A stretch of DNA of 64,000 bases from an uncultured Tateyamaria sp. (GTDB lineage Bacteria > Pseudomonadota > Alphaproteobacteria > Rhodobacterales > Rhodobacteraceae): the NCBI GenBank assembly GCA_947501275.1, contig CANMVD010000009.1:9925-73924 (forward strand), in the 5' to 3' direction. Of the stretch, positions 22,371 to 39,936 are shown piece after piece; the stretch's first letter is position 1, and every line of letters begins with the position of its first letter. The translations under genes were made by a program, and so were the position numbers. A model generated the notes under the pieces. The model ran no database searches. It saw only the letters and a list, made by a program, of their open reading frames with translations, and was not told the DNA's origin.

Positions 22371-22392
22371 TTTTTGCACACGTGTGCAAAAA
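22371..22392. promoter_or_regulatory. Candidate LacI-family operator of the ABC/SnoaL island
   Basis: Perfect 22-bp palindrome TTTTTGCACACGTGTGCAAAAA with central CG, 54 nt upstream of the ATPase ATG. Confidence 0.8.
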
Positions 22393-22446
22393 TTCCTTGC
22401 GCGACTCGCGATGCTGGTCTTACGCTGAGTTAACCAAGGGGGCACC

Positions 22447-23493
22447 ATGGCAGAAATCCAACTTCGCAATATCAACAAACGCTGGGGCAGCTTTGTTGGC
22501 GTTGACAGTTTTGACCTGACCATTGCGGATCAGGAATTCCTTGTTTTGCTCGGACCGTCGGGCTGCGGCAAGACGACGACAATGCGCATGATTGCAGGAC
22601 TTGAAGACGCCACCGAGGGCGACATCATGATTGATGGCAAGCGCGTCAATGATCTCGACCCCAAGGATCGTGATGTGGCCATGGTGTTTCAATCCTACGG
22701 CCTTTACCCCCACATGAACGTCTACGAAAACATCCGCTTTCCGCTGAAGGTGCGCAAAGTGGATGCGGCCAGCCACGATGAGAAAGTGCGCCGTGCCTCG
22801 GCCATGGTCGAGCTTGACGATTTCCTTCATCGCAAACCGGCCGAGTTGTCGGGCGGCCAACGCCAGCGCGTTGCTTTGGCGCGCGCCATTGTGCGTGAAC
22901 CAAACGTGTTTCTGATGGACGAACCCCTGTCCAATCTTGACGCCAAATTGCGTGTATCGACCCGCGCCCAGATCAAGAACCTGAGCCACGAGCTGAAGGT
23001 GACGACTGTCTACGTGACCCACGACCAGATCGAGGCCATGACGCTTGCCGACCGCGTTGTCGTGATGAAACAGGGTAAGGTGCAGCAAGTTGGCACGCCA
23101 ACGGACATCTACGACCGCCCGGCCAATACGTTTGTGGCCAGCTTTATTGGTTCTCCGGCCATGAACCTGATGGAAGGGTCCGTTTCCGGCGGGACATTTA
23201 CGGGCGACAATGTTTCGATCGAAGGGCTTTCCGTACCGGACGGCCCAGCGACGGTGGGCTTTCGGGCCGAAGACGCGACGTTGGCCGAAAGTGACGGTCA
23301 GATCAGCGCGCCCATCTACACAATCGAGCTGCTGGGGGATGCCACCATGCTGACGGTGCGCGCGGGCGGACAGCTGGTGTCGGTAAAGGCCCACAAGGAA
23401 TTCCGAGCCAACATCGGCGATATGGTGTCCTTCTCTATTCCGGCGGGCATTTGCCACGCCTTTGATACCTCGTCTGGCGAACGGCTGGATTGA
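22447..23493 (+). CDS. CUT1 (MalK/UgpC-like) ABC transporter ATP-binding protein
   Basis: GPSGCGKT, LSGGQRQR, MDEP, VTHDQ.EAM, C-terminal TOBE-like region. Confidence 0.95.
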   Translation: MAEIQLRNINKRWGSFVGVDSFDLTIADQEFLVLLGPSGCGKTTTMRMIAGLEDATEGDIMIDGKRVNDLDPKDRDVAMVFQSYGLYPHMNVYENIRFPLKVRKVDAASHDEKVRRASAMVELDDFLHRKPAELSGGQRQRVALARAIVREPNVFLMDEPLSNLDAKLRVSTRAQIKNLSHELKVTTVYVTHDQIEAMTLADRVVVMKQGKVQQVGTPTDIYDRPANTFVASFIGSPAMNLMEGSVSGGTFTGDNVSIEGLSVPDGPATVGFRAEDATLAESDGQISAPIYTIELLGDATMLTVRAGGQLVSVKAHKEFRANIGDMVSFSIPAGICHAFDTSSGERLD

Positions 23494-23592
23494 GGCAACG
23501 GCGCGCGATCGGGGGCACTCATCGCGCACTGCAAAACCGCCAGTGCAGGCTTGCAAGATGCACTGGCTCATAACGCAACAGGGAGTTTGCAT

Positions 23593-24825
23593 ATGTATCT
23601 GAAGAAACTGGCACTGGCGGGCGCGGTCTCGCTCTCGGGCATGTTGATGAGCACGGGCGCATACGCGGCCTGCGCATATGAAAACACGGTGCCGCTGAAA
23701 TCGCTGAGCGCGGGTTTTGAAGCGTGGAAAGCTGTCACAGACGCGATGGCGGAGTGCGGCAACTTTGAAGCAGAGCTGGATCAGGAATTCCGCACGAAGC
23801 AGCCCGCTGCTTTTGCGGCAAACCCGTCGCTGTATCAGATTGGCGGCGTGTCCAACGGCACAATCACACCTTTGCTGAACGCAGGCACCATCCGTCCGCT
23901 GGATGATCTGGTCGCCAAATACGGTCAGAACCTTGCGCCCAACCAACTGATCCGCGTGGATGGCAAGATCATGGCCGTGGCCATGATGGTGAACACGCAG
24001 CACCTGATGTATCGCGAAGACATCTTCAACGACCTCGGCATCGAGACACCCACATCCTGGGATGAAGTCTTTGCCGCCGCCGAAAAGATCAAGGCAGCCG
24101 GTGTGGTGGACTACGCGATTGGCGCGACAATGAAGTCGGGTTGGAACCTCGCGCAGGAATTCGTGAACATGTATCCCGGCTTTGGCGGTCAGTTCTTCAA
24201 TGGCGACAACACGACAGCTGTGAATTCTGACGCTGGTATCAAGGCGTTGGAAACAATGGCGAAAACACTGCCATACGCTGATCCAGAAGTGCTGGTCAGC
24301 GATTCCACCTACGTGCAGCAGCAGTTCCAGCAGGGCAAGATTGCCATGTCGAACCTGTGGGCAAGCCGTGGCGGTGCCATGAACGATGCCAACGAAAGCT
24401 CGGTTGTGGGCAAGGTCAAAATGGCCGCTGCACCAGTGGCCATGGAAGGTGGCGCACCAGCGACCACGCTGTGGTGGGATGGTGTCGTGATTGCCGCCAA
24501 CATCTCGGATGAAGAGGCAGATGCCGCGTTCCGACTGGTGATGGAAGGCATGGACGAAGAGATGGTCAAGGCCAACAACGAAGCCGCGATCTGGCTGGTG
24601 GGTGGCTATGAGCCGGGTCCATTGGCTGCCGGAGCAATTGCCACCGCGACAGCGACGCCTGCGGCTCCGCCTTATCCTTCGACCACGCAAATGGGTCTGT
24701 TGCACACCTCGCTGGGCAACGAACTGCCAGCCTTCCTGACGGGTGAACGCGATGCGGCGGCGACGCTTGTGGCCATCGAGGAAAGCTACACCACTGCCGC
24801 CAAGGAAGCCGGCATTCTGGAATAA
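23593..24825 (+). CDS. CUT1 ABC transporter substrate-binding protein
   Basis: Signal peptide (AYA); LMYREDIF..LGIETPTSWDE SBP_bac_1-like motif. Confidence 0.9.
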   Translation: MYLKKLALAGAVSLSGMLMSTGAYAACAYENTVPLKSLSAGFEAWKAVTDAMAECGNFEAELDQEFRTKQPAAFAANPSLYQIGGVSNGTITPLLNAGTIRPLDDLVAKYGQNLAPNQLIRVDGKIMAVAMMVNTQHLMYREDIFNDLGIETPTSWDEVFAAAEKIKAAGVVDYAIGATMKSGWNLAQEFVNMYPGFGGQFFNGDNTTAVNSDAGIKALETMAKTLPYADPEVLVSDSTYVQQQFQQGKIAMSNLWASRGGAMNDANESSVVGKVKMAAAPVAMEGGAPATTLWWDGVVIAANISDEEADAAFRLVMEGMDEEMVKANNEAAIWLVGGYEPGPLAAGAIATATATPAAPPYPSTTQMGLLHTSLGNELPAFLTGERDAAATLVAIEESYTTAAKEAGILE

Positions 24826-24833
24826 GAGAAAAT

Positions 24834-24867
24834 GCGGTTGGCCGGGGTTAACGTCTCGGCCAACCGC
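24834..24867 (+). other. Intra-operon stem-loop after the SBP gene
   Basis: GCGGTTGGCCGGGG-TTAACG-TCTCGGCCAACCGC; no U tract; typical position for stabilising SBP mRNA. Confidence 0.6.
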
Positions 24868-25090
24868 CCACAGTCGGGGGACCAATGGCACAGGAATTAG
24901 ATCATAGCGATGTGGGCGGTGGCTTTGCTGGATGCGCGGTGGACGCGCATCTTGCTGAACACCCCGGCACGAAGTCCTGCGTGATCAAGACGAGGTCAGA
25001 TGACACTGACAGCAGGCCACCCGCGGCAGCGCCAATTGTCGGCAGGCAGATCGGCAGCCAAAGGGCCGACGTGACACAAAGGAAAGCGGC

Positions 25091-26119
25091 ATGAAATTCA
25101 AGACGTTCTTCTGGTTCGTGGCTCCGTCCTTGTTCATGATGATCCTGTTCATCGCGGCGCCGCTGATTTCAGTTTTCATCCAGTCCTTTCAAATCACGCA
25201 GCCGGTCATGCAGCAGATCGAGGTTGAGACCTGTACGCCCGGTTTCCTGACCCAGACCTGCACAACCGAACTGAAAACCGTTCCGGTGATTGATGAGGCC
25301 ACTGGAAAGACCCAGACCACAACGGCTTGGGTCGGCCTAGAAAGCTATCGCAACGTGCTGCAAATGGACAAGGTATGGGCCGCGATCGGCTCGGGCCAGT
25401 TCCGTGACATCCTGCAAATCGATTTCTGGAAAGCGTTGCGCTTTACCTTGACGTTCACGTTGTTGACCCTGCCGTTGGTGGTGGGTGTCGGCCTTGCCAT
25501 CGCGCTGGCCGTGAACAATGCGGCCAAGTCGCTGCGCGGCCCTGTGATTTTCATCTCGCTTTTGCCTTTCATTATCACGCCGGTGATCGGGTCGTTGTCG
25601 ATCTATTGGCTGTTTGTGGGTGACGGCATTCTGACCACTACGCTTGAACGCTGGACCGGGCAGGATATCGCCATGTTCGCACAAAGCTGGACCATCGAAT
25701 TACTGATGTATTTTTACCGGGTCTGGCACGTGGCGCCCTTTGCCTTTGTGATTTTCTATGCCGGGCTGCAAACAGTGAATATGGATACGCTGGAAAGCGC
25801 CATTATCGATGGGGCATCCCGCTTTGAGCGGTTGCGCTACGTGATCGTGCCGCACCTGATGCCGTTGATCGTGTTCATTGCGCTGATCCACTTGATGGAT
25901 TGCTACCGCGTGTTCGAAGAAATCATTGGCTTCCGCTCTGAAGCGCACGTGATTTCCCTGCAATGGCTGACCTTTGATTTCCTCACACCGGATGATGCGG
26001 GCAACCGGGCGATCAGCCGCGCCTCTGCAAGCGCCATGCTGACCATGATCGGGATCGTGATCCTGTTGATCCTGCCACTGCGCCGCACATGGCGTGACCA
26101 TAAGGGAGGGGCGCACTGA
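25091..26119 (+). CDS. CUT1 ABC transporter permease (MalF-like)
   Basis: FVIFYAGLQ...TLESAIIDGASRFERLRYVIVPHL (EAA loop). Confidence 0.92.
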   Translation: MKFKTFFWFVAPSLFMMILFIAAPLISVFIQSFQITQPVMQQIEVETCTPGFLTQTCTTELKTVPVIDEATGKTQTTTAWVGLESYRNVLQMDKVWAAIGSGQFRDILQIDFWKALRFTLTFTLLTLPLVVGVGLAIALAVNNAAKSLRGPVIFISLLPFIITPVIGSLSIYWLFVGDGILTTTLERWTGQDIAMFAQSWTIELLMYFYRVWHVAPFAFVIFYAGLQTVNMDTLESAIIDGASRFERLRYVIVPHLMPLIVFIALIHLMDCYRVFEEIIGFRSEAHVISLQWLTFDFLTPDDAGNRAISRASASAMLTMIGIVILLILPLRRTWRDHKGGAH

Positions 26120-27273
26120 TGTCCTCGAAAGCCACTGCGCAGCCGCTGTCGCTGAAGATCGCCTCTGGTGCATTCCTCGCCTTCTGGTGTGTGCTTGCTG
26201 CCTTTCCAATCTTCTGGATTGCGGTGATGAGCGTCAAATCCCCGCGCGACGCCTTTGCGGCAAGCGCGTGGGACGTGATCACCGGCCCAGTGACCCAGGC
26301 TGCCGGCAATGGACTGTCCGTTCTGGATATCGTGATTGGCTTGGCCTTCTTGGTCTATGCTGTTCGCTGGGCCTTTACCGGCCTGCCCAAGCTGATTGCC
26401 CACTTGTCCCCGCCAGCGTGGATCGTGCTTGGCTGGCTGGTTGGTGCGGCTGTCTATGCGGTCGTTTTCGTGCTGCTGTTCTTTGGGCTGTTGCCGATCA
26501 TCCTTGGGGCCGTCAACGCGATTGCGGGACCTTTGGGCACGCCGATCCTCGGGTTGACGACGGAACACTATGTGGCCGTGTGGGGCGAAAACGCATTTTA
26601 CGAAAACTTCATCAACTCGATGATCGTGACGGCGGGCGTTGTCACCGTGTCGCTGACGGTGGGTACATTGGCGGGCTACGGGCTGGCGCGTTCTGGGTCA
26701 AACCTTGCGTTCTGGCTGTTGATCCTCGCGCTGATCTTTCGCGCGCTGCCGCATTCGGTTTTGGTGGCTGGCTACTTGCCATGGTTCATCAACTCTGCGG
26801 AAATCCTGCGGCCCATTTTTGGCGAGCTTTCCCCGACGCTTTATGGTCAGCCATGGGCGGTGATCGCCGTTCTTGTGGCCATCAACCAACCCTTCACCAT
26901 CTGGATGCTGCGTTCGTTCTTCCAGAACATTCCGTCCGAACTGGACGAGGCTGCGCGGGTTGACGGGTGCAGCCACTTTCAGGCGTTCCGCCGGGTGATT
27001 ATGCCGGTCATGTGGCCGGGGGTTATCACGACGGGTCTGTTCAGCTTTTTGTTGGGCTATAACGACTTCCTCGTCACATCCTTGCTGCTGGATGCCCAAA
27101 ACCAAACGATGGTGCCGGCAATTGCGGGCTACTTTAACCGCGAAACCACAACCACGGATCAGGTCGAAGCGGTGGCCGCGGCTGTGTCCATCACGGCGCC
27201 ATTGTTCCTGCTTGTCATGGTCTTTCAACGTCAGATCGTGAGCGGGTTGACTGCAGGGGCGGTCAAGGGCTGA
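26119..27273 (+). CDS. CUT1 ABC transporter permease (MalG-like, with extra TM insertion)
   Basis: FFQNIP.ELDEAARVDGCS EAA loop; 384 aa with an additional hydrophobic hairpin near the N-terminus. Confidence 0.92.
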   Translation: MSSKATAQPLSLKIASGAFLAFWCVLAAFPIFWIAVMSVKSPRDAFAASAWDVITGPVTQAAGNGLSVLDIVIGLAFLVYAVRWAFTGLPKLIAHLSPPAWIVLGWLVGAAVYAVVFVLLFFGLLPIILGAVNAIAGPLGTPILGLTTEHYVAVWGENAFYENFINSMIVTAGVVTVSLTVGTLAGYGLARSGSNLAFWLLILALIFRALPHSVLVAGYLPWFINSAEILRPIFGELSPTLYGQPWAVIAVLVAINQPFTIWMLRSFFQNIPSELDEAARVDGCSHFQAFRRVIMPVMWPGVITTGLFSFLLGYNDFLVTSLLLDAQNQTMVPAIAGYFNRETTTTDQVEAVAAAVSITAPLFLLVMVFQRQIVSGLTAGAVKG

Positions 27274-27344
27274 TGAGCAGTGCATCGCGATCTGGCCGGA
27301 TGCAACGGCACCCGGCGCTCAACCGAATGCCCCGGGATTTCATC

Positions 27345-27375
27345 TGCAATACGTCGATCTCTTCAACGTATTGCA
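27345..27375. other. Intergenic inverted repeat before the first SnoaL gene
   Basis: TGCAATACGT-N11-ACGTATTGCA perfect 10-bp arms. Confidence 0.55.
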
Positions 27376-27404
27376 CACTCAAAGATGAATGAAAGGATGA
27401 TCCC

Positions 27405-27935
27405 ATGAAAGGATCTCGCCCCGAGCAAGCGGTGCTGACCCGCGACACGGACATGAGCAAAACGGATGCGACCCGCGCTGTGATTGAAGGTATGGTGGAC
27501 GGTCTCAATGACCACCGGATCGACGACATTGGCCAGTTCTTTGCACAGAGCTTTCGCTGGATGGGCAATACAGGGTGCGGCACCAAGACCGGCTTGCAGG
27601 AGTTTCAGGACAACTGGCAGCGTCCGTTTCAGGCGGCCTTTTCCGACAAGGTTTGCGTGGACGAGGCCCGTCTGTTCATGGGCGAATGGGCTGCGGCCTT
27701 TGGGCGACAGGAGGCCACGCACTCGGGCACCTTCATGGGGGTCGCCCCGACCGGCAAGCGGATCGAGATCCGCTATATGGATTTTTGGAAAGTCGAGGAA
27801 GATCGCATCACGGATAACTACGTGATGGTCGATTTCCCGCATGTATTGGCGCAGCTGGGGGTGGATGTATTCGACGGCGAGGGTTGGGAAGCTTTTGATC
27901 GCGGCGACAAGACCCCGCCGCGCCCGGATCAATGA
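27405..27935 (+). CDS. SnoaL/ester-cyclase-like protein (single NTF2 domain)
   Basis: ATHSGTFMGVAPTGKRIEIRYMDFWKV..DRI.DN.V.VD; AAAGGA RBS before ATG 27405 (alternative ATG 27453). Confidence 0.85.
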   Translation: MKGSRPEQAVLTRDTDMSKTDATRAVIEGMVDGLNDHRIDDIGQFFAQSFRWMGNTGCGTKTGLQEFQDNWQRPFQAAFSDKVCVDEARLFMGEWAAAFGRQEATHSGTFMGVAPTGKRIEIRYMDFWKVEEDRITDNYVMVDFPHVLAQLGVDVFDGEGWEAFDRGDKTPPRPDQ

Positions 27936-27943
27936 GGTAAGTC

Positions 27944-29272
27944 ATGACAATTGAGTATCTGAAGACGGCCAAGTCCGAGGCGGAACGCGCCGAAGATGAC
28001 GCCAAAGTGCGTTCAGCCGTCGAAGCGACGCTTGGCGATATCGAGGCGCGCGGAGATGAGGCCGTACGAGAATTGTCCGAAAAGTTCGACAATTACAGCC
28101 CGGACTCGTTCCGGCTGAGTATCGCGGAAATCGAGGCTCTGATTGCGGAGCTTTCCCCGCGTGAACTGGAGGATATCAAGTTCGCCCAACAGCAAGTGCG
28201 CGACTTTGCTCAGGCGCAACGAGAGTCGATGCTGGATATCGAGGTCGAGACGATGCCCGGTGTGATCCTTGGCCATAAAAACATCCCGGTTCAATCCGTG
28301 GGCTGTTACGTGCCCGGCGGCAAGTTCCCGATGGTGGCCTCGGCCCACATGTCGGTGGCTACGGCTTCGGTGGCAGGTGTGCCACGCATCATCGCCTGCA
28401 CACCACCTTGGCAGGGCAAACCCAATGCGGCGGTGATTGCGGCGATGCATCTGGGTGGCGCCCACGAGATTTACGTGATGGGGGGTATTCAGGCAGTGGG
28501 TGCGATGGCCATCGGGACCGAGACGATTGAACCCGTGCACATGCTTGTTGGACCGGGCAACGCCTTTGTCGCAGAAGCAAAGCGCCAGCTTTTTGGACGC
28601 GTCGGCATAGATCTGTTTGCCGGTCCCACCGAAACCATGGTGATTGCGGACGAAACCGTGGACGGAGAGATGTGTGCAACCGATCTGCTGGGACAGGCCG
28701 AGCATGGCTACAACTCACCCGCTGTTCTGCTGACCAATTCACGCAAACTGGCTGAGGAGACATTGGCAGAGATTGACCGGATTCTGACCATTTTACCGAC
28801 GGCCGATACCGCATCGAAGTCGTGGGAAGATTATGGTGAGGTCATTCTGTGCGACACCTACGACGAGATGTTGAAGGTGGCCGATGATGTCGCCAGCGAG
28901 CATGTGCAGGTGATGACGGATCGTGACGACTGGTTCTTGGAACATATGACCTGCTATGGGGCTCTGTTCCTTGGGCCGCGCACGAATGTCGCCAATGGCG
29001 ACAAGGTGATCGGCACCAACCACACTCTGCCCACCAAAAAGGCAGGGCGTTACACTGGTGGTTTGTGGGTTGGCAAGTACCTCAAGACGCACTCGTATCA
29101 GAAGGTCCTGACAGACGAAGCCGCCGCCGAGATCGGAGCCTATGGGTCGCGTTTGTGCATGCTCGAGGGGTTCGTGGGCCATGCAGAGCAATGCAATCTG
29201 CGGGTGCGCCGCTATGGCGGCGTAAATGTGCCCTATGGCACGGGTGCGCCTGCACGGGATGCTGCGGAATAG
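27944..29272 (+). CDS. Histidinol dehydrogenase-superfamily NAD/Zn dehydrogenase, HpsN-like paralog of unknown substrate
   Basis: [54 protein letters not shown]; no his operon context. Confidence 0.88.
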
Positions 29273-32147: not shown

Positions 32148-33166
32148 TGGACAGACCTGTGACGGCATTGGATGTGGCACAAAAAGCGGGCGTATCGCGC
32201 TCGGCGGTGAGCCGTGTGTTTACGCCCGGCGCATCCGTGTCCAAGCGCACCGCGGAAAAGGTGCGTTGCGCGGCTGATGCGTTGGGCTATCGGCCCAATG
32301 TCTTGGCCAGATCGCTGATTACGGGGCGCAGCCGGATCATCGGCCTTGTGGTCGCCTACCTAGAAAATCAGTTCTACCCCGAAGCCATTGAACGGCTCAG
32401 CCGGCACTTGCAGGAGCGCGGCTATCACGTGCTGGTCTTCATGGCGTCCAACTCGGGTGAAGAGGCCGACGAAGTGATGGAAGAACTGCTCGACTACCAG
32501 GTCGACGGAATTATTGCGGCCAGTGTGGGGATGTCCAATGACCTGACGCGACGCTGCGAAGCCGCTGGCATCCCGATTGTGCTGTTCAACCGTGCACAGG
32601 ATGATGACCGTCTGTCTTCGGTCACGTCCGACAATTATCACGGGGGCCGCAAGCTGGCGGAGTTTCTTGTGGCAGGCGGACACAAACGCGTGGCCCATAT
32701 CGCCGGTTGGGAGGGGGCCTCTACCCAGCGGGACCGCGAAGCCGGTTTTGTTGCAGGATTGGCGGCGGCAGGGCAAACCCTCGCCGCGCGCGGCGTCAGT
32801 GATTTCGATTTTGAGCGGGCCAAAACAATCGCCCGCGAGATGTTCAGCTCTGACACTTATCCCGATGCCGTGTTTTGCGCCAACGACCACATGGCCTTTG
32901 CCGTCATGGATGTGCTGCGGTTCGAGTTGGGCCTGCGAGTGCCCGACGACGTGTCCGTTGTGGGCTATGACGATGTCACGCTGGCAGCATGGCCCAGCTA
33001 TGATTTGACGACGGTGCGCCAGCCTGCGGGGCAAATGGCGCGCGCGACGGTCGATATTCTGATGGATCGCTTGGCCGATCCCGAGACCAAACCCCGCCGG
33101 GTTGCGCTTGATGGACCTTTGATCCTGCGTCGCTCGGCCCGCATTCCAGAAGGTTGGACCACATGA
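32147..33166 (+). CDS. LacI family transcriptional regulator
   Basis: VTALDVAQKAGVSRSAVSRV HTH, YRPNVLARSL, PDAVFCAND, VSVVGYDD; TGATG overlap with the SDR. Confidence 0.95.
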   Translation: MDRPVTALDVAQKAGVSRSAVSRVFTPGASVSKRTAEKVRCAADALGYRPNVLARSLITGRSRIIGLVVAYLENQFYPEAIERLSRHLQERGYHVLVFMASNSGEEADEVMEELLDYQVDGIIAASVGMSNDLTRRCEAAGIPIVLFNRAQDDDRLSSVTSDNYHGGRKLAEFLVAGGHKRVAHIAGWEGASTQRDREAGFVAGLAAAGQTLAARGVSDFDFERAKTIAREMFSSDTYPDAVFCANDHMAFAVMDVLRFELGLRVPDDVSVVGYDDVTLAAWPSYDLTTVRQPAGQMARATVDILMDRLADPETKPRRVALDGPLILRRSARIPEGWTT

Positions 33167-34146
33167 AGGGCTTTTCGAACCGTTTTGCCGATTTCCCGGA
33201 CTACATCATCGGCATCACCAAGGAGATCTGGGAGGATCGCGGCATCGCGACTCTGCACCATTACTACAGTCCCGACATTGTGGTGCGTTCTCCTGCAAGC
33301 GTGGTGATTGGCAATCAGAAAGTCATTGGCGCCACCATGGCGACACTGGCCGAATTCCCTGATCGCACGTTGCTGGGCGAGGATGTGATCTGGTCCGGCA
33401 CACCGGAAGAGGGGATGTTGTCCTCGCACCGCATCCTGTCCACTGCGACCCACATGGCCGATGGCATGTACGGCAAAGCGTCAGGCAAGAAGCTGCAATA
33501 CCGCATCATTGCGGATTGTCACGCCATTAACGACCAGATCAATGACGAGTGGCTGATCCGCGACCAGACAGCAATCGTGAACCAGATCGGGTGGGAGGCC
33601 AAAGCCTTTGCCGCCGATTTGATCGAACGCGAAGGCGGGATGGACAAGGCGGTCATGCCGCTGACCCCGGCGACCGATCAGCCCGGCCCCTACAAGGGGC
33701 GTGGCAATGACAACGCCTGGGGCCAGAAATACGCAGATGTCCTGACGCGCATCATGGGCGCGGACATGGCTGTCATCCCGAGTGAATATGACCGCGCGAT
33801 CCAGTCCGAATATCCCGGTGGCGCAACCGGGCACGGCACCGCGCCTGTGGATCAGTTCTGGATGGGGCTGCGGGCGTCCTTCCCCGATGCCACGTTCTCC
33901 ATAGATCACCAGATCGGGCGCGACGACCCGACGATGCCGCCACGCGCGGCGATCCGCTGGGCGATGCACGGCAAGCATGATGGATGGGGCTACTTCGGCG
34001 CACCCACTGGGGCCGAAGTCTACGTGTTGGGGATTTCCCATGCCGAGTTTGGCTCGCTTGGGGTTGCCCAACCCAAAATCCGGCGTGAGTTTACACTGTT
34101 TGACGAAACGGCGATCTGGAAGCAGATCCTTCTGCAAACCGGATAG
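33163..34146 (+). CDS. Two-domain SnoaL/ester-cyclase-like protein C
   Basis: EIWEDR.....YYSPDIV, AEFPDR, EWLIRD; second repeat RASFPDA..., HGKHDGWGYFGAPTG; ATGA overlap with LacI. Confidence 0.78.
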   Translation: MKGFSNRFADFPDYIIGITKEIWEDRGIATLHHYYSPDIVVRSPASVVIGNQKVIGATMATLAEFPDRTLLGEDVIWSGTPEEGMLSSHRILSTATHMADGMYGKASGKKLQYRIIADCHAINDQINDEWLIRDQTAIVNQIGWEAKAFAADLIEREGGMDKAVMPLTPATDQPGPYKGRGNDNAWGQKYADVLTRIMGADMAVIPSEYDRAIQSEYPGGATGHGTAPVDQFWMGLRASFPDATFSIDHQIGRDDPTMPPRAAIRWAMHGKHDGWGYFGAPTGAEVYVLGISHAEFGSLGVAQPKIRREFTLFDETAIWKQILLQTG

Positions 34147-34231
34147 ACCATCGATGCGCTTGTTTCCCGGCCTTGCAGTTCTCACCTTTGTGTTGCCCGC
34201 CACGCGTGCGGGCGGCGAAAGGGAATAATCC

Positions 34232-34846
34232 ATGCAACGCTATGACGAACTGATGTTTACCGACGCTGTCAAAGCCTTTCAGGAGGTTGAAGGCGTGGCA
34301 GACAAATACGCGGCAACCTACGGCGCACGCGCCCATGCGCTGACTGAGGACGAGGTCGGATTTGTGACCAGCCGGACATCGTTCTATATGGCCACGGTGT
34401 CCGAAACCGGATGGCCCTACATTCAGCACCGCGGTGGGCCGGCGGGCTTTTTAAACGTGTTGGACGATCACACGCTCGCCTTTGCCGACTATCGCGGCAA
34501 CAAGCAGCATATCACCCAAGGAAATCTGGTCAGCGATGACCGCGTGTCGGTGTTCTTGATGGATTATCCTCGCAAGGCGCGCATGAAGCTACAGGGGCGC
34601 GCGACGTTTCAGCAGGCGACAGATGCGCCTGAACTGGCGAACCGCCTCGCGGTCAAAGGGCAGGGCCGGGTCGAACGGGTTGTGACCATCGCCCTTGAGG
34701 CGTTCGACTGGAACTGCCCGCAATACATCACGCCGCGCTTTGAAAGTGCCGAGATCGCGCAACTGGTTGGCCCCGAGATGGACAGACTGACTGCCCGTAT
34801 CGCGGAATTGGAAGCCGAGATTGCCGCGCTGAAAGGGCAGGGATGA
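34232..34846 (+). CDS. Pyridoxamine 5'-phosphate oxidase-like FMN-binding protein
   Basis: FYMATVSETGWPYIQHRGGPAGFL, ADYRGNKQ.IT.GN, FDWNCPQYITPR. Confidence 0.88.
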   Translation: MQRYDELMFTDAVKAFQEVEGVADKYAATYGARAHALTEDEVGFVTSRTSFYMATVSETGWPYIQHRGGPAGFLNVLDDHTLAFADYRGNKQHITQGNLVSDDRVSVFLMDYPRKARMKLQGRATFQQATDAPELANRLAVKGQGRVERVVTIALEAFDWNCPQYITPRFESAEIAQLVGPEMDRLTARIAELEAEIAALKGQG

Positions 34847-35379
34847 GCGATATCTACGCCGCAGCCGAACGCCTTATGGGGATGCAGGACGCCGATTGGC
34901 GGCGGCATGCAAATCCGCTCAGCGTCTGGACGCGGTTCAGCTGTTTGCCCCTGCTGGCGCTGGCGATTTATGCGCGCGCTTGGGTGGGGTGGGCCGCACT
35001 TCCGCTCTTTGGCGTGGCGGCGGCCTGGACGTGGTACAATCCGCGCGCCTTTTCGCCACCTGCCGACTTTGGCGCATGGGCCTCACGCGCCACATTGGGC
35101 GAGCGGATCTTTCTCGACCGCGCTCGCTACGGCGTGGCACGCCATCACATTCTCGCAGCGCACGTACTGACGGCCCTGTCCGCAGCTGGCATCATTCCGT
35201 TGATTTACGGGCTGATCCTTCTCAACCCGTGGGCGACGTTCACGGGCCTTGTCGCCGTCATTTTGCCCAAGGTCTGGTTCTGTGACCGCATGGTCTGGAT
35301 CCACGCCGAGATGACAGGCACCACACCGGGCGACCCTATGCCCGATCCGATCATGCCACCAGATCTGGCACCGCTATGA
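34843..35379 (+). CDS. Small membrane protein, DUF6653-like
   Basis: WRRHANPLSVWTRF motif recalled for this family; four hydrophobic segments; KVWFCDRMVW. Confidence 0.65.
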   Translation: MSDIYAAAERLMGMQDADWRRHANPLSVWTRFSCLPLLALAIYARAWVGWAALPLFGVAAAWTWYNPRAFSPPADFGAWASRATLGERIFLDRARYGVARHHILAAHVLTALSAAGIIPLIYGLILLNPWATFTGLVAVILPKVWFCDRMVWIHAEMTGTTPGDPMPDPIMPPDLAPL

Positions 35380-35417
35380 CAATTCTTCCTTCTGTAAAGC
35401 TGTTAGGTGGAGTAACG

Positions 35418-35690
35418 ATGCAGTTCTCCTTTAACTATTCTACCTTTCGCGGGTTCTTTGACAGCTTCTCGAAACCCGTGGGCGAGCGCGCCGTTCACGT
35501 TGTGAATGGCAACATCAAAGTGCAACAACGCGGAGAAGGCGACGATGCGCGGTTTTACCTGCGCATCCGCTCTGGCTTTTCCAATTTTCAGTATCAGCGT
35601 ATCGAGTGGGCACAAATGCTCGCCCTTGCCGAAGCCTTGGTCGATATGGCTCAAGACTGCGAAACTCAAGAAAAGGACAACACGACATGA
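35418..35690 (+). CDS. Small hypothetical protein (90 aa)
   Basis: AGGTGGAG RBS, ATG 35418; stop overlaps the cupin ATG (ATGA); no family recognised. Confidence 0.6.
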   Translation: MQFSFNYSTFRGFFDSFSKPVGERAVHVVNGNIKVQQRGEGDDARFYLRIRSGFSNFQYQRIEWAQMLALAEALVDMAQDCETQEKDNTT

Positions 35691-36652
35691 CCCCCGCCGA
35701 GATGGAGCCGCGCATTGTGCGTTACGGCGATCTGATGCCCTGCAAGACCGCCTTTATCGATGCCCACACGCCGGGGTCCGACCAAAAGGAGAATTTTACC
35801 ATCATCGGGGGTGGGGTCTCGGAATCGGCGGACCAGCATGTCCATATTTCGATCCCGCACGGGTTTAACATCGGGGCGGCCGGGCAACCGCCCAAGTGCC
35901 GAAACTCCCTGCACTCCCACCGCACGGCAGAGGTGTTTTTTGTCTTGTCGGGGCGTTGGCGGTTTTTCTGGGGGCGCTACGGTGATGCAGGTGAGGTCGT
36001 GCTGGAAGAAGGCGACATCATCAACATCCCCACAGGGATCTTTCGCGGCTTTGAAAATATCGGAACAGAGTACGGGATGATCATGGCGATCCTTGGAGGC
36101 GATGATGCCGGGGGCGGCGTCATTTGGGCCCCGCAAGTGATCGAGGATGCGGCGGATCACGGGCTGGTGCTGGGCGAGAACGGACAGCTTTATGACACCA
36201 AGGCCGGGGCAACCTTGCCCGACGGGGTCGCGCCGATGCCCGTGCTCAGCGAAGACGAGCTCAAGCACTACCCGGAGATGACACCGGGCGAGGTTGTTGG
36301 CATGGGGGTGCGCCGCTACTGGGATATGGTTGCGCTGGCCAAGGACACGCCCTGCAAGGTGATTGGCGAGACCGGGATCATCCGTGACAAACCGGGTTTC
36401 GAGGTTGATCTGATCACCCGCAGTTCCGCCACGCACGACATGCACCAGCACGACCGTCCGTCGGTTCTGATGCCCATGCGCGGCCATTGGCGCGTGAGTT
36501 GGGAGGGGGGCAGCACGACCCTTGCCCCCGGCGACACGATGAGCGTGCCGGAAAACATGCCCCACAGCGCCGTTCCGTCGATGACGGGACCGGCATCGCT
36601 CTATCATGTCGTCGGTACGGACGATCCTGCAGGGCCCACATGGCAAGGCTGA
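35687..36652 (+). CDS. Bicupin protein
   Basis: Cupin 1 HSHRTAEVFFVLSG...GDIINIPTG; cupin 2 HQH...GDTMSVPENMPH. Confidence 0.85.
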   Translation: MTPAEMEPRIVRYGDLMPCKTAFIDAHTPGSDQKENFTIIGGGVSESADQHVHISIPHGFNIGAAGQPPKCRNSLHSHRTAEVFFVLSGRWRFFWGRYGDAGEVVLEEGDIINIPTGIFRGFENIGTEYGMIMAILGGDDAGGGVIWAPQVIEDAADHGLVLGENGQLYDTKAGATLPDGVAPMPVLSEDELKHYPEMTPGEVVGMGVRRYWDMVALAKDTPCKVIGETGIIRDKPGFEVDLITRSSATHDMHQHDRPSVLMPMRGHWRVSWEGGSTTLAPGDTMSVPENMPHSAVPSMTGPASLYHVVGTDDPAGPTWQG

Positions 36653-37569
36653 TTGCATGTGTTCTGGGCCTTTGGGTTTGCGCTGTGCACGCGCAGGCGC
36701 AGGTCTGGCAGGCGCAAACCGTGGATGGCGGGCATTTTGTCTTTCACATCGCGCGCGCGGGGGTGGCCGTAGACTTTGTCTGCCTTGCACCCTCCCTGCA
36801 GCGACGCCCTGCCGTAGACGTCGAGCAGCACGAGATCAGGCCCATGGCGCCCGGCATGACCCGGCTTGAGATCGGGACCGAGCGCGTGCCTGTTGGCAAT
36901 GACGTGATCCGCAATGACGTTGTTTTGTGGGCGGATCAGACGGGGTACCGGCTGCCGACCATCACGTTCAACGAACTCGATGGCGTTTGGCAGGTGGATA
37001 TCTCGGCCACGGATCCGATGTGGACCGGCTTGGTGCAGGCAAGCACGGTGATACTCGCGCCCGGTCAGGCGCAGGCCTGGCAATTGCCTGTGGCCGGGTT
37101 GGCTGGTGCGGTGACGCAGGTCCAAAGCGACTGCGCACAGGCGTGGTCGGCCGCGCAAGCCGCACCAGCGCCTGCGCAAGGTATCGTGACCATTCCGCCA
37201 GAAGTTGGCGCGCGCGTCAGTCAGGGGTGTGGCGCGCAGACGCCGCTGCCGGGCGCAGCGGTGCAGGCTGGCGACCTTGACCGCGATGGCACGCCAGACT
37301 TTGTGGTGAACTGGGGAGAGATCAGATGCCCCGGTGCCAATGCGCGCCCTTTCTGCGGGGCTGCCAATTGCAGTCAGATGGTGTTCCTGTCTTCGCGCCG
37401 TTTTCTGGACCCTGTCGACTTTTTGGGCACCTCTCTCACGATCGTGCCACACCACAGCGGTGCGCTGGCCCTCAGGATGACGGGTTCCTTTTCTCTGTGC
37501 GGCGCACAAGGAGAAAACTGTGCCAACCCATTGGTGTGGGATGGTGCTTCATTCGTTGAACGGCCATAA
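36640..37569 (+). CDS. Secreted hypothetical protein with DxDxDG Ca-binding-like loop and Cys pairs
   Basis: Signal peptide (AQA), Ala/Pro linker, GDLDRDGTPD, FCGAANC. Confidence 0.7.
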   Translation: MARLIACVLGLWVCAVHAQAQVWQAQTVDGGHFVFHIARAGVAVDFVCLAPSLQRRPAVDVEQHEIRPMAPGMTRLEIGTERVPVGNDVIRNDVVLWADQTGYRLPTITFNELDGVWQVDISATDPMWTGLVQASTVILAPGQAQAWQLPVAGLAGAVTQVQSDCAQAWSAAQAAPAPAQGIVTIPPEVGARVSQGCGAQTPLPGAAVQAGDLDRDGTPDFVVNWGEIRCPGANARPFCGAANCSQMVFLSSRRFLDPVDFLGTSLTIVPHHSGALALRMTGSFSLCGAQGENCANPLVWDGASFVERP

Positions 37570-37598
37570 AGCCGGTAACAGAACCGTGAGGTATTGAT

Positions 37599-38720
37599 AT
37601 GGTTTTAACGACACATGCGGGCAGCCTGCCACGCACGCAAGAGATCGTCGATTTCATTTTTGCGCGTGAGCGTGGCGAGGACTACGATCCGGCCGCCTTT
37701 GACGCCGCCATGACGGCGGCGGTCGATGTGACGGTTGCCAAACAGGTGGCCGCAGGTGTCGGCATTGTCAGTGATGGCGAGACGTCCAAGATCAGCTATG
37801 CCACCTATGTCAAGGATCGCTACACCGGCTTTTCTGGCGACAGCCCCCGCAATGCTCCCGCCGACCTCAAGAAATTCCCCAGTTTCCTCAAGCGCCTTGC
37901 AGACGATGGTGGCACCCCGCAATATGCACGCCCCATGTGCACGGGGCCCGTGAAAAGCCGTGGGCAGGGCGAGTTGGGAAAGGACATCGCCAATCTCAAG
38001 GCTGCCATGGCCAAACACGGGGCCGAGCGGGGCTTTATGAATGCCGCCTCACCGGGTGTGATTTCGTTGTTTTTGCAAAACGACTACTATCCCACGCGCG
38101 AGGCTTATCTGGCCGCGCTGGCTGATGCGATGAAGGAAGAATACGAAACCATCGTGGCGGCGGGTCTGGATCTGCAACTTGACTGCCCCGACCTCGCGCT
38201 CAGCCGTCACATGCTGTTTGCAGATCTCAGCGATGCCGAATTCCTGAAAATCGCAGACGCGCATGTGGAAGCGATGAATTATGCGTTGTCGGATGTGCCT
38301 GCCGAGAAAGTTCGTGTGCACATCTGCTGGGGCAACTACGAGGGGCCGCATGTCTGTGATATCGACATGGACACGGTGTTTCCGACGCTGATGGCAACCA
38401 AGGCGCGCTACATGCTGTTTGAAACGTCCAACCCCCGCCACGCCCATGAATGGACCGTGTTCCGCGACCGGCGCAGCGAAATCCCTGACGACAAGGTGCT
38501 GGTGCCGGGGGTCGTCGACACAACCACGAATTTTGTCGAGCACCCCGAAGTTGTGCGCCAACGGATCGATCGGTTCACAGACATCGTGGGCGAGGATCGG
38601 GTGATTGCGGGCAGCGACTGCGGCTTTGGCACCTTTGCGGGCTTTGGGGCCGTCGATCCTGACATTGCCTATGCCAAACTTCAGGTGATGGCCGAAGGTG
38701 CCGCATTGGCCAAAGGATAA
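37599..38720 (+). CDS. Cobalamin-independent methionine synthase II-like (single-barrel MetE/UROD superfamily) Zn enzyme
   Basis: TTHAGSLPR, SDGE, LQLDCP, HICWGNY (HxC), DCGFGT (third Zn ligand); 373 aa, so no N-terminal folate-binding barrel. Confidence 0.88.
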   Translation: MVLTTHAGSLPRTQEIVDFIFARERGEDYDPAAFDAAMTAAVDVTVAKQVAAGVGIVSDGETSKISYATYVKDRYTGFSGDSPRNAPADLKKFPSFLKRLADDGGTPQYARPMCTGPVKSRGQGELGKDIANLKAAMAKHGAERGFMNAASPGVISLFLQNDYYPTREAYLAALADAMKEEYETIVAAGLDLQLDCPDLALSRHMLFADLSDAEFLKIADAHVEAMNYALSDVPAEKVRVHICWGNYEGPHVCDIDMDTVFPTLMATKARYMLFETSNPRHAHEWTVFRDRRSEIPDDKVLVPGVVDTTTNFVEHPEVVRQRIDRFTDIVGEDRVIAGSDCGFGTFAGFGAVDPDIAYAKLQVMAEGAALAKG

Positions 38721-38725
38721 GCGCG

Positions 38726-39418
38726 ATGGACAACGCCCTGCACGATCTGTTGGCCTCGGTCGACACGCCAACTGTGTGCAACGCCATCGAGGTGGCCCAA
38801 GGAAAACGCGGCTTTAACGGGTTTACGCGCGGCACAATGCTGGCCTCGGATCCGGGTGGCGTGATGGTCGGCTATGCCCGCACGGCACGCATACGGGCTG
38901 TCGCTCCGCCAACCGAAGCGCCCGAGGTGATCAAGGCGCGGCGCATGGCCTATTACCGCTACATGTCCGAAGGTTCTCGACCCGCGGTATGTGTGGTGCA
39001 GGACCTTGATGTACCTGCCGCAATCGGGGCGTATTGGGGTGAGGTGAACACCAATATACACAAGGCATTCGGGCTTGCGGGTACTCTGACGGACGGAGTG
39101 ATGCGGGATCTCGGGGATGTGGCCGAAGGCTATCCGGTTGTCGCGGGATCAATTGGGCCCAGCCACGGATATGTGCACGTGATTGACTACGATCTGCCGG
39201 TGCGGATCCACGGGCTCGATATCCGGCCGGGCGATCTGGTCCATGCGGACCGTCACGGCGCAGTTGTGGTGCCACCGGATGTGATCGACACGCTGGCGGC
39301 TGCCATTGCAACGCTCATGCAATCTGAAAAGATCGTGTTTGACGCGGTAAAGGACAAGCGTATCTCGTTTGAGGATTTCGAGGTGGCTTGGGCCGCGTTT
39401 GAGGCCGCGCGCACGTGA
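38726..39418 (+). CDS. RraA/HMG aldolase-like family protein
   Basis: DTPTVCNA, AYWGEV, TDGVMRD, PGDLVHADRHGAVVVP. Confidence 0.85.
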   Translation: MDNALHDLLASVDTPTVCNAIEVAQGKRGFNGFTRGTMLASDPGGVMVGYARTARIRAVAPPTEAPEVIKARRMAYYRYMSEGSRPAVCVVQDLDVPAAIGAYWGEVNTNIHKAFGLAGTLTDGVMRDLGDVAEGYPVVAGSIGPSHGYVHVIDYDLPVRIHGLDIRPGDLVHADRHGAVVVPPDVIDTLAAAIATLMQSEKIVFDAVKDKRISFEDFEVAWAAFEAART

Positions 39419-39936
39419 TCCGGGCCTTGATCTGTGCCGTGTTCACATGCATCGGGGCAGCGCAGGCGCAGGAGGCCAGAATGGAATTGCAGGCAGACTG
39501 GGAATATGTGGCCGACAAGGTCATGGGTGGCGTGTCACGCGGTCAGATGCGTCGGGAAGCCGTCGATGGGCGCGAAGCTGCACGTCTCACGGGCACTGTA
39601 TCATTGGACAATGATGGCGGATTTATCCAAATGGCTTTTGACCTTGGACCGTTGGATGTGTCGGCCTGGACCGGGATCGAGATCGACGTGATTGGCAACG
39701 GCGAACGCTACGACATGCGTTTGCGCACCCAGGATCTGACCCGGCCATGGCAATCCTACCGAACTGAGTTCGTCGCCCCGCAGCGTTGGAATACTATCCA
39801 ACTGCCATTTTCGGAGTTCGAGGCTCATCGTACCGAGGCACCGCTTGCCCTTGATCGCCTGCGACGCATCGGTGTTCTCGCCATTGGCCGTGTGTTTGAC
39901 GCTGATGTCTCGGTGGCTGCCATCCGTCTTTATTGA
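39415..39936 (+). CDS. CIA30/NDUFAF1-like (CBM11-like fold) protein with signal peptide
   Basis: VADKVMGGVSRG, VSLDNDGGF, PWQSYR.EF; GTGA overlap with the RraA gene. Confidence 0.85.
   Translation: MIRALICAVFTCIGAAQAQEARMELQADWEYVADKVMGGVSRGQMRREAVDGREAARLTGTVSLDNDGGFIQMAFDLGPLDVSAWTGIEIDVIGNGERYDMRLRTQDLTRPWQSYRTEFVAPQRWNTIQLPFSEFEAHRTEAPLALDRLRRIGVLAIGRVFDADVSVAAIRLY

Follow-up and report, generated by a model that had tools for sequence, protein, structure and literature searches.

A LacI-type regulon with tandem NTF2/SnoaL proteins as a candidate catabolic system for a small polar compound in an uncultured Tateyamaria

Results

Organization of the gene cluster

We analyzed a 64,000-nucleotide stretch of DNA from an uncultured Tateyamaria sp. 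(contig CANMVD010000009.1, positions 9,925 to 73,924 of the forward strand; the whole stretch is called the window, and positions are counted from its first letter). The subject of this work is a run of genes at 22447-39936 that encodes an ATP-binding cassette (ABC) importer, a LacI-family repressor, several proteins built from NTF2/SnoaL domains, two dehydrogenases and a set of putative catabolic enzymes. We read this run, with a probability of roughly 0.55 for the general scheme, as the principal operon of a regulon that is repressed by LacI and serves the catabolism of a small polar compound. On the side of observation, the reading rests on the conservation of the unit, the two copies of its operator, the protein families, the states of their motifs and their co-occurrence, and from these we infer the chemistry and the substrate. 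The features, with the genes numbered g01 to g19, are as follows.

22371-22392, no strand: operator, perfect 22-bp palindrome TTTTTGCACACGTGTGCAAAAA, with the core TTGCACACGTGTGCAA at 22374-22389; 55 nt 5' of g01
22447-23493, plus: g01, ABC ATPase of the UgpC/MalK type with a TOBE domain (Pfam ABC_tran, TOBE_2, OB_MalK)
23551-24825, plus: g02, CUT1-type periplasmic solute-binding protein (SBP) (Pfam SBP_bac_1)
24834-24869, plus: 11-bp perfect stem-loop GCGGTTGGCCG...CGGCCAACCGC without a T-run, directly 3' of the SBP gene
25091-26119, plus: g03, ABC permease 1 (Pfam BPD_transp_1)
26119-27273, plus: g04, ABC permease 2 (Pfam BPD_transp_1)
27405-27935, plus: g05, single-domain SnoaL/NTF2 protein (Pfam SnoaL, 64 bits)
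27944-29272, plus: g06, HisD/HpsN-family dehydrogenase (Pfam Histidinol_dh, 445 bits)
29333-30343, plus: g07, tandem SnoaL 'a', an extra paralog (Pfam, two SnoaL stretches)
30340-31389, plus: g08, tandem SnoaL 'b', the signature gene of the system (Pfam SnoaL)
31386-32147, plus: g09, short-chain dehydrogenase/reductase (SDR), KduD/gluconate-5-dehydrogenase-like (Pfam adh_short_C2)
32147-33166, plus: g10, LacI-family repressor (Pfam LacI and Peripla_BP_3)
33154-34146, plus: g11, tandem SnoaL 'c' (Pfam SnoaL)
34232-34846, plus: g12, PNPOx-type flavoprotein (Pfam), a lineage-specific insert
34843-35379, plus: g13, DUF6653 membrane protein (Pfam), a lineage-specific insert
35376-35690, plus: g14, 104-aa orphan open reading frame without a Pfam match, overlapping both neighbors by 4 nt
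35687-36652, plus: g15, bicupin (Pfam Cupin_2, twice)
36640-37569, plus: g16, exported protein with a weak FG-GAP match, a local insert
37599-38720, plus: g17, single-barrel MetE-like Zn enzyme of 373 aa (Pfam Meth_synt_2)
38726-39418, plus: g18, RraA-like putative 4-hydroxy-2-oxoacid aldolase/oxaloacetate decarboxylase (PF03737, 67 bits)
39415-39936, plus: g19, exported CIA30-domain protein (Pfam CIA30), lineage-specific

All 19 open reading frames (ORFs) between 22447 and 39936 are co-directional on the plus strand, and in the ORF listing their starts and stops overlap at nine junctions: by 4 nt at six of them (g07/g08, g08/g09, g12/g13, g13/g14, g14/g15 and g18/g19), by 1 nt at two (g03/g04 and g09/g10) and by 13 nt at g15/g16. 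At a tenth junction, g10/g11, the overlap amounts to 13 nt with the TTG start of the listing and to 4 nt with the ATG at 33163. No convincing terminator was seen in the sequence of the run before the end of g19, and the GC content is even over the region. A first-pass annotation made from the letters alone had described 18 consecutive plus-strand genes with many overlaps of 1-4 nt behind a perfect palindrome; the co-directional run, the short overlaps (six of 4 nt, two of 1 nt) and the palindrome at 22371-22392 all hold, and the gene count is corrected to 19. Pfam and NCBIfam agree with every family that it named, including the seven SnoaL domains, carried by one single-domain and three two-domain proteins. 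It had also claimed that polyketide synthase (PKS), nonribosomal peptide synthetase (NRPS), glycosidase, kinase and coenzyme A (CoA) ligase genes are absent, and the Pfam calls on the 19 ORFs indeed contain none of these domains.

The importer is of the CUT1 type, with an SBP_bac_1 protein, two BPD_transp_1 permeases and a MalK/UgpC-type ATPase with a TOBE domain (Pfam and NCBIfam), and g01 scores 452 bits against the NCBIfam UgpC subfamily, above the cut-off. Translation of the SBP likely starts at the Met at 23593, ahead of a predicted signal peptide. A sequence search with g02 returned only distant PDB relatives, all of them sugar-type SBPs with no informative ligand, and across related loci g02 falls into two subtypes, at ~40% and 65-90% identity.

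A split regulon with two identical operators

The 14-nt and 16-nt cores of the operator each occur in exactly two mismatch-free copies in the 4.6-Mb genome, and the next best 16-mer has two mismatches. The second copy of TTGCACACGTGTGCAA is on contig C4:133421-134956 (7422-8957 of locus L106), unlinked to the main cluster, and lies ~50 nt 5' of a 170-aa lipoprotein-like ORF without a Pfam match, and next to this ORF comes a tandem SnoaL gene of 336 aa. The product of the latter is 54-64% identical to the 'p' paralog of other loci, and in most other genomes the 'p' gene is the divergent neighbor of the ATPase gene, with which it shares the operator-bearing intergenic region. Since the second operator heads unlinked lipoprotein and tandem SnoaL genes, the system is a regulon. 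The product of g10 combines an HTH_LacI domain with a periplasmic-binding-type effector domain (Pfam), and the palindrome is centered on CG; this LacI protein most likely binds both sites and controls at least two transcription units here, with nine NTF2 domains in all. The first-pass annotation contained neither the split regulon nor a methyl-transfer role of the MetE-like enzyme, to which we return below.

The operator is not peculiar to this genome. Its consensus, TTGCA[ACT]ACGT[AGT]TGCAA, is found in 55 of the 100 related loci, nearly always in the intergenic region that separates the ATPase gene from the divergent SnoaL gene, where two copies are frequent, and in Roseibium it stands additionally 5' of the SnoaL-HisD pair. 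Two further repeats lie within the cluster. The stem-loop at 24834-24869 sits in a 265-nt gap between the SBP and permease genes, where such an intra-operon hairpin may set the SBP:permease ratio. At 27344-27374, a 10-bp inverted repeat, TGCAATACGT-N11-ACGTATTGCA, occupies the 131-nt gap 5' of g05/g06; its arms resemble the operator half-site plus one extra base, and this is the place of the true operator in Roseibium.

Conserved core and distribution

Co-occurrence was assessed by tblastn of all the proteins of the window against 20 + 80 loci, 63 of which are full-length and come from other species, and genes within +/-10 kb of a g08 ortholog were considered for the core. The conserved core consists of 13 genes (g01-g06, g08-g11, g15, g17 and g18). 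All 13 are together in 39 of the 63 full-length loci, and at least 12 in 50. Single members are kept in 60 (g01), 59 (g05), 59 (g10), 61 (g11), 57 (bicupin g15), 56 (MetE-like g17) and 43 (RraA-like g18) of these loci. The core families stay together even in L053, L086 and L090, in which order and orientation are scrambled, which argues for function rather than inherited synteny. Co-occurrence in other genomes had been proposed in the first-pass annotation as the check on the whole idea, and the genes are found together across hundreds of species. Its assignment of all 18 genes to one pathway went too far, because the PNPOx-type flavoprotein, the DUF6653 protein, the 104-aa ORF, the secreted protein and the CIA30 protein are not kept with the core (g12 11/63, g13 5/63, g14 0/63, g16 1/63 and g19 7/63; the extra tandem paralog g07 is present in 6/63). 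The 104-aa ORF is a gene of very recent origin or else spacer DNA without a coding function.

The proteins of the core differ in their conservation, with median identities over the loci of 87% for the HisD-like dehydrogenase, 84% for the single SnoaL protein and 83% for the MetE-like enzyme, and of 67% for the SBP, 73% for tandem SnoaL b and 76% for tandem SnoaL c. Homologs of g08 number in the thousands and are named only 'ester cyclase', the closest being those of Tateyamaria, Roseobacter and Sulfitobacter. In a sample in which each genus of this family is represented by a single genome, g08 has matches in 63 of 151 genomes, ~45 of which hold an ortholog of >=50% identity. A pattern scan of species-representative genomes found relatives of g08 in at least 588 species genomes, including Roseibium, Oricola, Ahrensia, Cohaesibacter, Geminicoccaceae, Leucothrix, Granulosicoccaceae and a metagenome-assembled genome (MAG) labelled SAR324. 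The distribution thus reaches from Rhodobacterales and Hyphomicrobiales to gammaproteobacteria, the carriers are mostly marine, a distant variant occurs in a haloarchaeon, and the cluster is often on plasmids or chromids. It is a conserved, widespread catabolic unit that brings known families together in an undescribed combination. The first-pass annotation could not match it to any characterized pathway; the full-text literature that we searched likewise yielded no such pathway, no description of the cluster and no name of a substrate.

Related loci carry accessory genes. A PcaD-like alpha/beta-hydrolase gene lies between g17 and g18 in ~38 of them, a fuconolactonase-like Amidohydro_2 gene beside the divergent tandem SnoaL 'p' in ~16, and GMC oxidoreductase and M19 dipeptidase genes are found in ~8 and ~4, respectively; the cluster described here has none of these four. 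In ~27 related loci an S-adenosylmethionine-dependent methyltransferase gene stands between g15 and g17, a position held here by g16. Our genome encodes a 236-aa alpha/beta-hydrolase, 47-59% identical to the hydrolase of the ~38 loci, at an unlinked site (C2:492008-492718), which we left out of the regulon because no operator lies within reach.

The flanks of the cluster are unrelated to it, with an acyl-CoA dehydrogenase gene upstream and, downstream, a gene for a nucleotide cyclase-FHA protein followed by a convergent minus-strand set. The nucleotide cyclase domain, a stand-alone one fused to the FHA domain, is encoded directly downstream, at 40165-41058, and is kept there in 2 of the 63 loci. 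At 41071-43506 on the minus strand, convergent to the cluster, are genes for an enolase-superfamily acid-sugar dehydratase (galactonate-dehydratase-like, below the cut-off) and a Zn-dependent alcohol dehydrogenase (Zn-ADH). The same dehydratase adjoins the cluster in 17 of the 63 loci, and a copy of 54% identity is present in the shuffled MAG locus L086, so a functional link of the dehydratase to the cluster is possible. The downstream minus-strand genes (enolase-type dehydratase, Zn-ADH, major facilitator superfamily (MFS) transporter, Lyase_1 and hydrolases) were nevertheless excluded from the operon because they lie on the opposite strand and have no operator.

The NTF2/SnoaL proteins

The AlphaFold2 model of the signature protein g08 (pLDDT 89.5) contains two NTF2 domains. 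Taken singly, these resemble IdmH, SnoaL2/AclR and ChaU in Foldseek (TM ~0.75), whereas the best full-length hits, Lsd19 and MonBI-MonBII, reach TM values of only 0.3-0.4 with a root-mean-square deviation of ~16 A, and the domain arrangement of g08 therefore seems to differ from that of Lsd19. These Foldseek matches are generic SnoaL folds that point to no specific function. A PDB sequence search with the tandem proteins returned only weak single-domain matches. Six residues, R117, D137, Q144, H236, G269 and D315, are invariant in all four tandem paralog groups.

The Pfam name of the family, SnoaL-like polyketide cyclase, and the closest folds (IdmH, SnoaL2/AclR, ChaU and Lsd19/MonB) would suit a cluster for biosynthesis or tailoring, with the SnoaL-type 'ester cyclases' as makers of a product similar to polyketides. 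However, the cluster holds no PKS, NRPS, CoA ligase or acyl carrier protein, and an SBP-dependent importer works in the direction of uptake and is accompanied by a LacI repressor. The match to the SnoaL methyl ester cyclase model NF033407 is 34 bits versus a cut-off of 200, and the system is spread over hundreds of marine heterotrophs with small genomes. Because there is no PKS and uptake is driven by an importer, we reject polyketide cyclization or biosynthesis as extremely improbable.

The HisD-like dehydrogenase

The closest PDB match of g06 is HpsN (8v35, 393 bits over the full length), with 8wwe also near, compared to 252 bits for HisD; the active site aligns, and g06 keeps the GDK motif (Lys353 of CpHpsN). 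HpsN has the loop G-R-Y-[AS]-H, in which His126 binds the sulfonate, where HisD has G-S-A-P-L (PMC11382572). In g06 this loop reads G-K-F-P-M and is invariant in 79 orthologs. Two other members of the HisD family are encoded elsewhere in the genome. The one on contig C1 has a HisD-type loop and GDY and scores 530 bits against TIGR00069, compared to 429 bits for g06 (cut-off 244). The other, on the 4.4-kb contig C17 (C17:1533-4415), is an HpsN-type gene with the loop G-G-R-Y-S-H, cut by the contig end, beside SDR and Zn-ADH genes; this is an hpsN/hpsO/hpsP-like set for 2,3-dihydroxypropane-1-sulfonate (DHPS), separate from the cluster. As g06 has neither the HpsN nor the HisD loop and the genome holds both types elsewhere, it would represent a third type of the HisD/HpsN family. 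A role as the HisD of histidine biosynthesis was rejected because of the better HisD on C1. To judge from its family, g06 probably catalyzes a four-electron, Zn/NAD-dependent oxidation to the acid of a primary alcohol whose neighboring carbon bears a heteroatom. The single SnoaL gene g05 is almost always directly 5' of the HisD-like gene across loci.

The first-pass annotation had connected the cluster with DHPS catabolism through HpsN. A sulfonate pathway of that kind, with g06 acting as HpsN on a sulfonated alcohol, would agree with the higher score of g06 against HpsN than against HisD, with the retained GDK and with the adjacent SDR gene. Against it, the sulfonate-binding loop is replaced in 79 of 79 orthologs, the Pfam calls at 22447-39936 include no sulfolactate sulfo-lyase, Xsc, CuyA or sulfite exporter, so that the cluster has neither a desulfonating enzyme nor an exporter of sulfite, and the canonical hpsN-SDR-Zn-ADH set is found on C17. 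Given the negative motif test and the separate hps locus, we reject this connection, which is largely refuted and very improbable.

The SDR, MetE-like, bicupin and RraA-like enzymes

Every NCBIfam match of the SDR g09 is below the equivalog cut-off. In the MetE-like protein g17, an alignment of orthologs shows H241, C243, C341, G8-S9-L10-P11-R12 (GSLPRT) and D59-G60-E61 to be invariant, and these motifs align to residues of the solved MetE proteins 1u1h and 3rpd. We take the H-x-C and the additional C to be the Zn ligands, and GSxPRT and DGE to be the motifs that hold homocysteine in MetE. Its best NCBIfam methionine-synthase match reaches 87 bits versus a cut-off of 406, and the protein is a single barrel without the N-terminal folate-binding barrel. 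Because g17 sits in a catabolic operon, its methyl donor is presumably a pathway intermediate, and methyl transfer from such a donor would presumably be an undescribed activity.

The N-terminal cupin of g15 has an invariant H76-x-H78-x3-E82, with Arg120 at the usual position of the fourth ligand, and the C-terminal cupin is degenerate. The AlphaFold2 model (pLDDT 75) has oxalate decarboxylase, 3-hydroxyanthranilate dioxygenase, quercetinase and salicylate dioxygenase as Foldseek neighbors at TM ~0.5. These neighbors are bicupins that cleave C-C bonds with O2, which we count in favor of such a role for g15; as generic bicupins they indicate no specific function. A single-sequence search of the PDB with g15 gave no match, and a profile gave a weak one to the acireductone dioxygenase 4qgl (E 0.003). 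The RraA-like protein g18 has the RraA fold and the DGxxRD motif (DGVMRD, with a presumed role for its Arg-Asp pair), and is distantly matched by the HMG/CHA aldolase 3noj (E 1e-4); its score of 32 bits against TIGR02798, with a cut-off of 304, gives no HMG/CHA aldolase orthology.

Variant loci

Several loci carry part of the system. On a Phaeobacter piscinae plasmid (L110), a minimal module of LacI, the ABC importer and three SnoaL genes stands alone. On a Vibrio pelagius plasmid, the SnoaL, importer and LacI part lies beside soxBDAG-purU (sarcosine oxidase genes), and on a Vibrio europaeus plasmid, genes for an MFS transporter, a tandem NTF2 protein, a porin and LacI lie beside an L-serine ammonia-lyase gene. 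From these combinations it seems that the SnoaL proteins act at the start and that their reaction already gives a useful product without the other enzymes. Two side observations concern these plasmids. In L110, the minimal module is adjoined by an SBP56-related selenium-binding-protein gene (13789-15186), which we take to belong to the methanethiol oxidase family. The tandem NTF2 protein of the Vibrio europaeus plasmid (L111, 11980-12996) is a different paralog, 31% identical to g08. Among the matches listed, this paralog is 75-98% identical across Vibrio, Psychromonas, Atlantibacter, Serratia, Endozoicomonas, Fusobacteria (Ilyobacter, Cetobacterium) and Clostridia. Such strong conservation between phyla is unusual and suggests that the gene has spread horizontally in recent times.

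The variant that tells most about function is on a plasmid of the haloarchaeon Halobellus limi. It has four tandem SnoaL genes (36-42% identical to g08), one single SnoaL gene and a MetE-like gene that is 39% identical to g17 over the full length and is joined directly to the SnoaL genes. These are arranged around a divergent IclR regulator gene with non-homologous partners. The HisD-like enzyme has its counterpart in an aldehyde dehydrogenase plus a hydroxyacid dehydrogenase, the bicupin in a catechol-2,3-dioxygenase-like VOC protein (248 bits), and the RraA-like protein in a pyruvate aldolase of the HpaI type. A GcvT-family protein is also encoded, the best models of which are the syringate O-demethylase DesA (470 bits) and the vanillate/3-O-methylgallate O-demethylase LigM (432 bits). 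The locus looks like a case of non-orthologous displacement, which supports roles in alcohol-to-acid oxidation, O-demethylation, dioxygenolytic ring cleavage and pyruvate aldolase cleavage. Our genome contains no DesA/LigM homolog, and the MetE-like protein is therefore the only methyl-handling candidate in the regulon.

These variants also bear on whether the operon is a single pathway. It could consist of two modules, in which the importer, SnoaL, HisD-like, SDR and LacI genes are functionally linked and the bicupin, MetE-like and RraA-like genes are merely syntenic and serve, for example, methionine or keto-acid metabolism. Some importer-SnoaL-LacI modules do lack the downstream genes, the stretch from g11 to g15 is interrupted here by variable genes, and the RraA-like gene is present in only 43 of the 63 loci. 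On the other hand, the bicupin and MetE-like genes are retained in 57 and 56 of these loci and stay with the SnoaL and HisD-like genes in the shuffled L053, L086 and L090, Halobellus again joins its MetE-like gene directly to SnoaL genes, and the co-directional, overlapping genes run to the end of g19 with no convincing terminator before it. We consider two modules improbable.

Discussion

A proposed pathway and its candidate substrates

In the catabolic scheme that we favor, an inducer would free LacI from TTGCACACGTGTGCAA, and the CUT1-type importer would take up a small polar ring compound bearing methyl and hydroxymethyl groups. The NTF2/SnoaL proteins, with their nine domains, would carry out the first steps without a cofactor on a substrate of the cyclic enone or enamine type, by hydrolysis of variable substituents, tautomerization and/or dehydration. 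The HisD-like enzyme would then oxidize -C(OH)-CH2OH to -C(OH)-COOH, and the SDR would adjust a ring alcohol or ketone. The MetE-like protein would move the methyl group of the substrate onto homocysteine to give methionine, the bicupin would open the ring with O2, and the RraA-like aldolase would split a 4-hydroxy-2-oxo acid into pyruvate and a second keto acid. The outline of ring opening, alcohol-to-acid oxidation and retro-aldol cleavage had already been given in the first-pass annotation and fits both the enzyme families and the haloarchaeal variant. We also count the lactonase-like accessory genes of the relatives, those for the PcaD-like hydrolase and the fuconolactonase-like Amidohydro_2 protein, in favor of these enzyme roles.

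As the substrate we tentatively put forward the mycosporine-like amino acids and their relatives 4-deoxygadusol and gadusol, our leading candidate. We arrive at this guess because these compounds are small, very polar and methoxy-bearing, because they have a ring carbon with OH and CH2OH, the vicinal arrangement that is chelated by HisD/HpsN enzymes, and because they carry variable amino-acid arms on a constant methoxy-cyclohexenone core. A constant core with variable arms fits the higher conservation of the presumed ring-core enzymes (83-87%) than of the SBP and tandem SnoaL b and c. The minimal importer, SnoaL and LacI modules beside L-serine ammonia-lyase or sarcosine oxidase genes count for the same family of substrates. 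Vibrio harveyi reportedly hydrolyzes mycosporine-like amino acids. Bacteria are reported to convert shinorine and porphyra-334 to mycosporine-glycine and 4-deoxygadusol, by an enzyme that is not known (PMC3083659).

If this guess is right, the tandem NTF2/SnoaL proteins would strip the amino-acid arms and/or dehydrate the cyclohexenimine or cyclohexenone core, and the third-type HisD/HpsN enzyme would turn the ring C(OH)CH2OH into a quinate-like acid. The MetE-like protein would be a cofactor-free O-demethylase that makes methionine straight from the methoxy group, and the bicupin would be a 2-His-1-Glu dioxygenase that delivers 4-carboxy-4-hydroxy-2-oxoadipate to the RraA-type aldolase. Two routes can be drawn. 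In the first, oxidation of CH2OH and demethylation would be followed by cleavage of the reductone ring at C2-C3 to 4-carboxy-4-hydroxy-2-oxoadipate, a compound that is the substrate of known RraA-family aldolases. In the second, 4-deoxygadusol would be dehydrated to 3,5-dihydroxy-4-methoxybenzyl alcohol, and oxidation and demethylation would then give gallate, which fits the aromatic-type partners in Halobellus. It is conceivable, at well below even odds, that the cluster is the first genetic system by which bacteria break down mycosporine-like amino acids and sunscreens of the gadusol type, with new enzyme activities.

Several points weigh against the catabolic scheme or parts of it. The catalytic roles are all assigned from family membership, at scores far below the curated equivalog cut-offs. 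We know of no NTF2 enzyme that hydrolyzes enaminone or imine C-N bonds, and of no precedent for an attack by a MetE-like thiolate on an enol or aryl methyl ether. CUT1 importers, like repressors of the LacI family, mostly serve sugars. In the bicupin the fourth His ligand that is normally present is missing, its Foldseek similarities reach a TM of only ~0.5 and its acireductone dioxygenase match is weak, and it could be an isomerase or a decarboxylase instead. The RraA-like gene is absent from about one-third of the loci, and some soil variants have neither the MetE-like nor the RraA-like gene. Finally, Halobellus is one locus, in which the adjacency of aromatic-type genes could be due to chance.

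The same scheme could serve another substrate, that is, a methylated, hydroxymethyl-bearing sugar- or cyclitol-like compound or a small methoxylated hydroaromatic or phenolic one (for instance an O-methyl inositol, a branched-chain sugar like apiose or a compound of the methyl-gallate type), with the SnoaL proteins as isomerases or dehydratases rather than C-N hydrolases and the overall logic unchanged. Pathways for sugars and sugar acids typically include a CUT1 importer, a LacI repressor and an SDR of the KduD/gluconate-5-dehydrogenase-like kind, the GMC oxidoreductase and the lactonase-like accessory genes suit sugar acids, and the acid-sugar dehydratase is a neighbor in 17 of the 63 loci and in the shuffled MAG locus. 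A phenolic compound would agree with the syringate/3-O-methylgallate-type O-demethylase and the extradiol dioxygenase of Halobellus. However, the core contains no kinase, aldose dehydrogenase, glycosidase or dehydratase of a known sugar-acid route, a simple sugar would hardly account for as many as nine NTF2 domains, and our genome is without a DesA/LigM homolog. Moreover, the known apiose, inositol and gallate pathways run on other enzyme sets. On balance, a substrate of this kind seems rather unlikely, slightly more so than the mycosporine-like compounds.

Significance

The regulon is real and widespread, and the interpretation given in the first-pass annotation is partly supported, with the link to sulfonates rejected. 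A large share of the carbon released by phytoplankton passes through roseobacters and related bacteria, yet for many operons that these bacteria link to transporters the substrate has not been named. Naming that of the present operon would assign a function to several large groups of proteins misnamed 'ester cyclase', 'histidinol dehydrogenase' and 'methionine synthase', and would reveal a further path for dissolved organic carbon, nitrogen and methyl groups into bacterial metabolism. Sunscreens of the mycosporine/gadusol type are released in quantity by phytoplankton, cyanobacteria, corals and fungi; were they the substrate, the regulon would account for the enzymatically unexplained bacterial turnover of ultraviolet sunscreens and would provide enzymes with new chemistry. 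The split regulon with its two identical operators offers a direct handle on inducers in this genome.

Comparison with known systems

Single proteins of the cluster have counterparts that agree with them in part. HpsN (8v35, 8wwe; PMC11382572, PMC11131964) shares with g06 the fold, the Zn/NAD-dependent four-electron chemistry from alcohol to acid and the GDK motif, but its His126 motif is replaced in g06 by G-K-F-P-M, and the hpsNOP genes for DHPS differ from the cluster, which has no desulfonation gene and imports through an ABC system, whereas the first-pass annotation names TRAP/MFS uptake for DHPS catabolism. Lsd19/MonBI-MonBII as well as SnoaL, AknH, IdmH, SnoaL2/AclR and ChaU have the NTF2/SnoaL fold of g08, and among solved enzymes Lsd19 alone represents a type in which two such domains work in series; Lsd19/MonBI-MonBII nevertheless seem to differ from g08 in the domain arrangement, sequence identity is 12-24%, and a polyketide context is missing here. 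The single-barrel core MetE proteins (MesA-D; 3rpd, 1ypx) have the TIM barrel, the Zn ligands and the GSxPxT and DGE motifs in common with g17, which, unlike the methionine synthases, falls far below all equivalog cut-offs and sits in a catabolic operon.

As a whole, the cluster most resembles the pathway for syringate, 3-O-methylgallate and gallate together with the 4,5-cleavage of protocatechuate. Both would combine O-demethylation, opening of an oxygen-rich six-membered ring with O2, hydrolysis or hydration of the product and cleavage to pyruvate by an aldolase of the RraA family (LigK/GalC/ProA), and the likeness extends to the Amidohydro_2 genes (LigI/LigJ-type in the known pathway) and enol-lactonase-like genes of the related loci and to the DesA/LigM-type gene and extradiol dioxygenase of Halobellus. 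In contrast, no protein is orthologous between the two, the ring-opening candidate here is a bicupin and not a LigB- or VOC-type dioxygenase, and the methyl group goes to tetrahydrofolate in the gallate-type pathway, whereas homocysteine would accept it here, with the MetE-like protein as the candidate. That pathway also has no counterpart to the nine NTF2 domains and the HisD-type dehydrogenase, and uptake by a CUT1 ABC importer under LacI control belongs to the present system. The closest pathway logic is thus that of the lower pathway of syringate, 3-O-methylgallate and gallate, and the closest single enzyme is HpsN; the cluster is a member of neither system.

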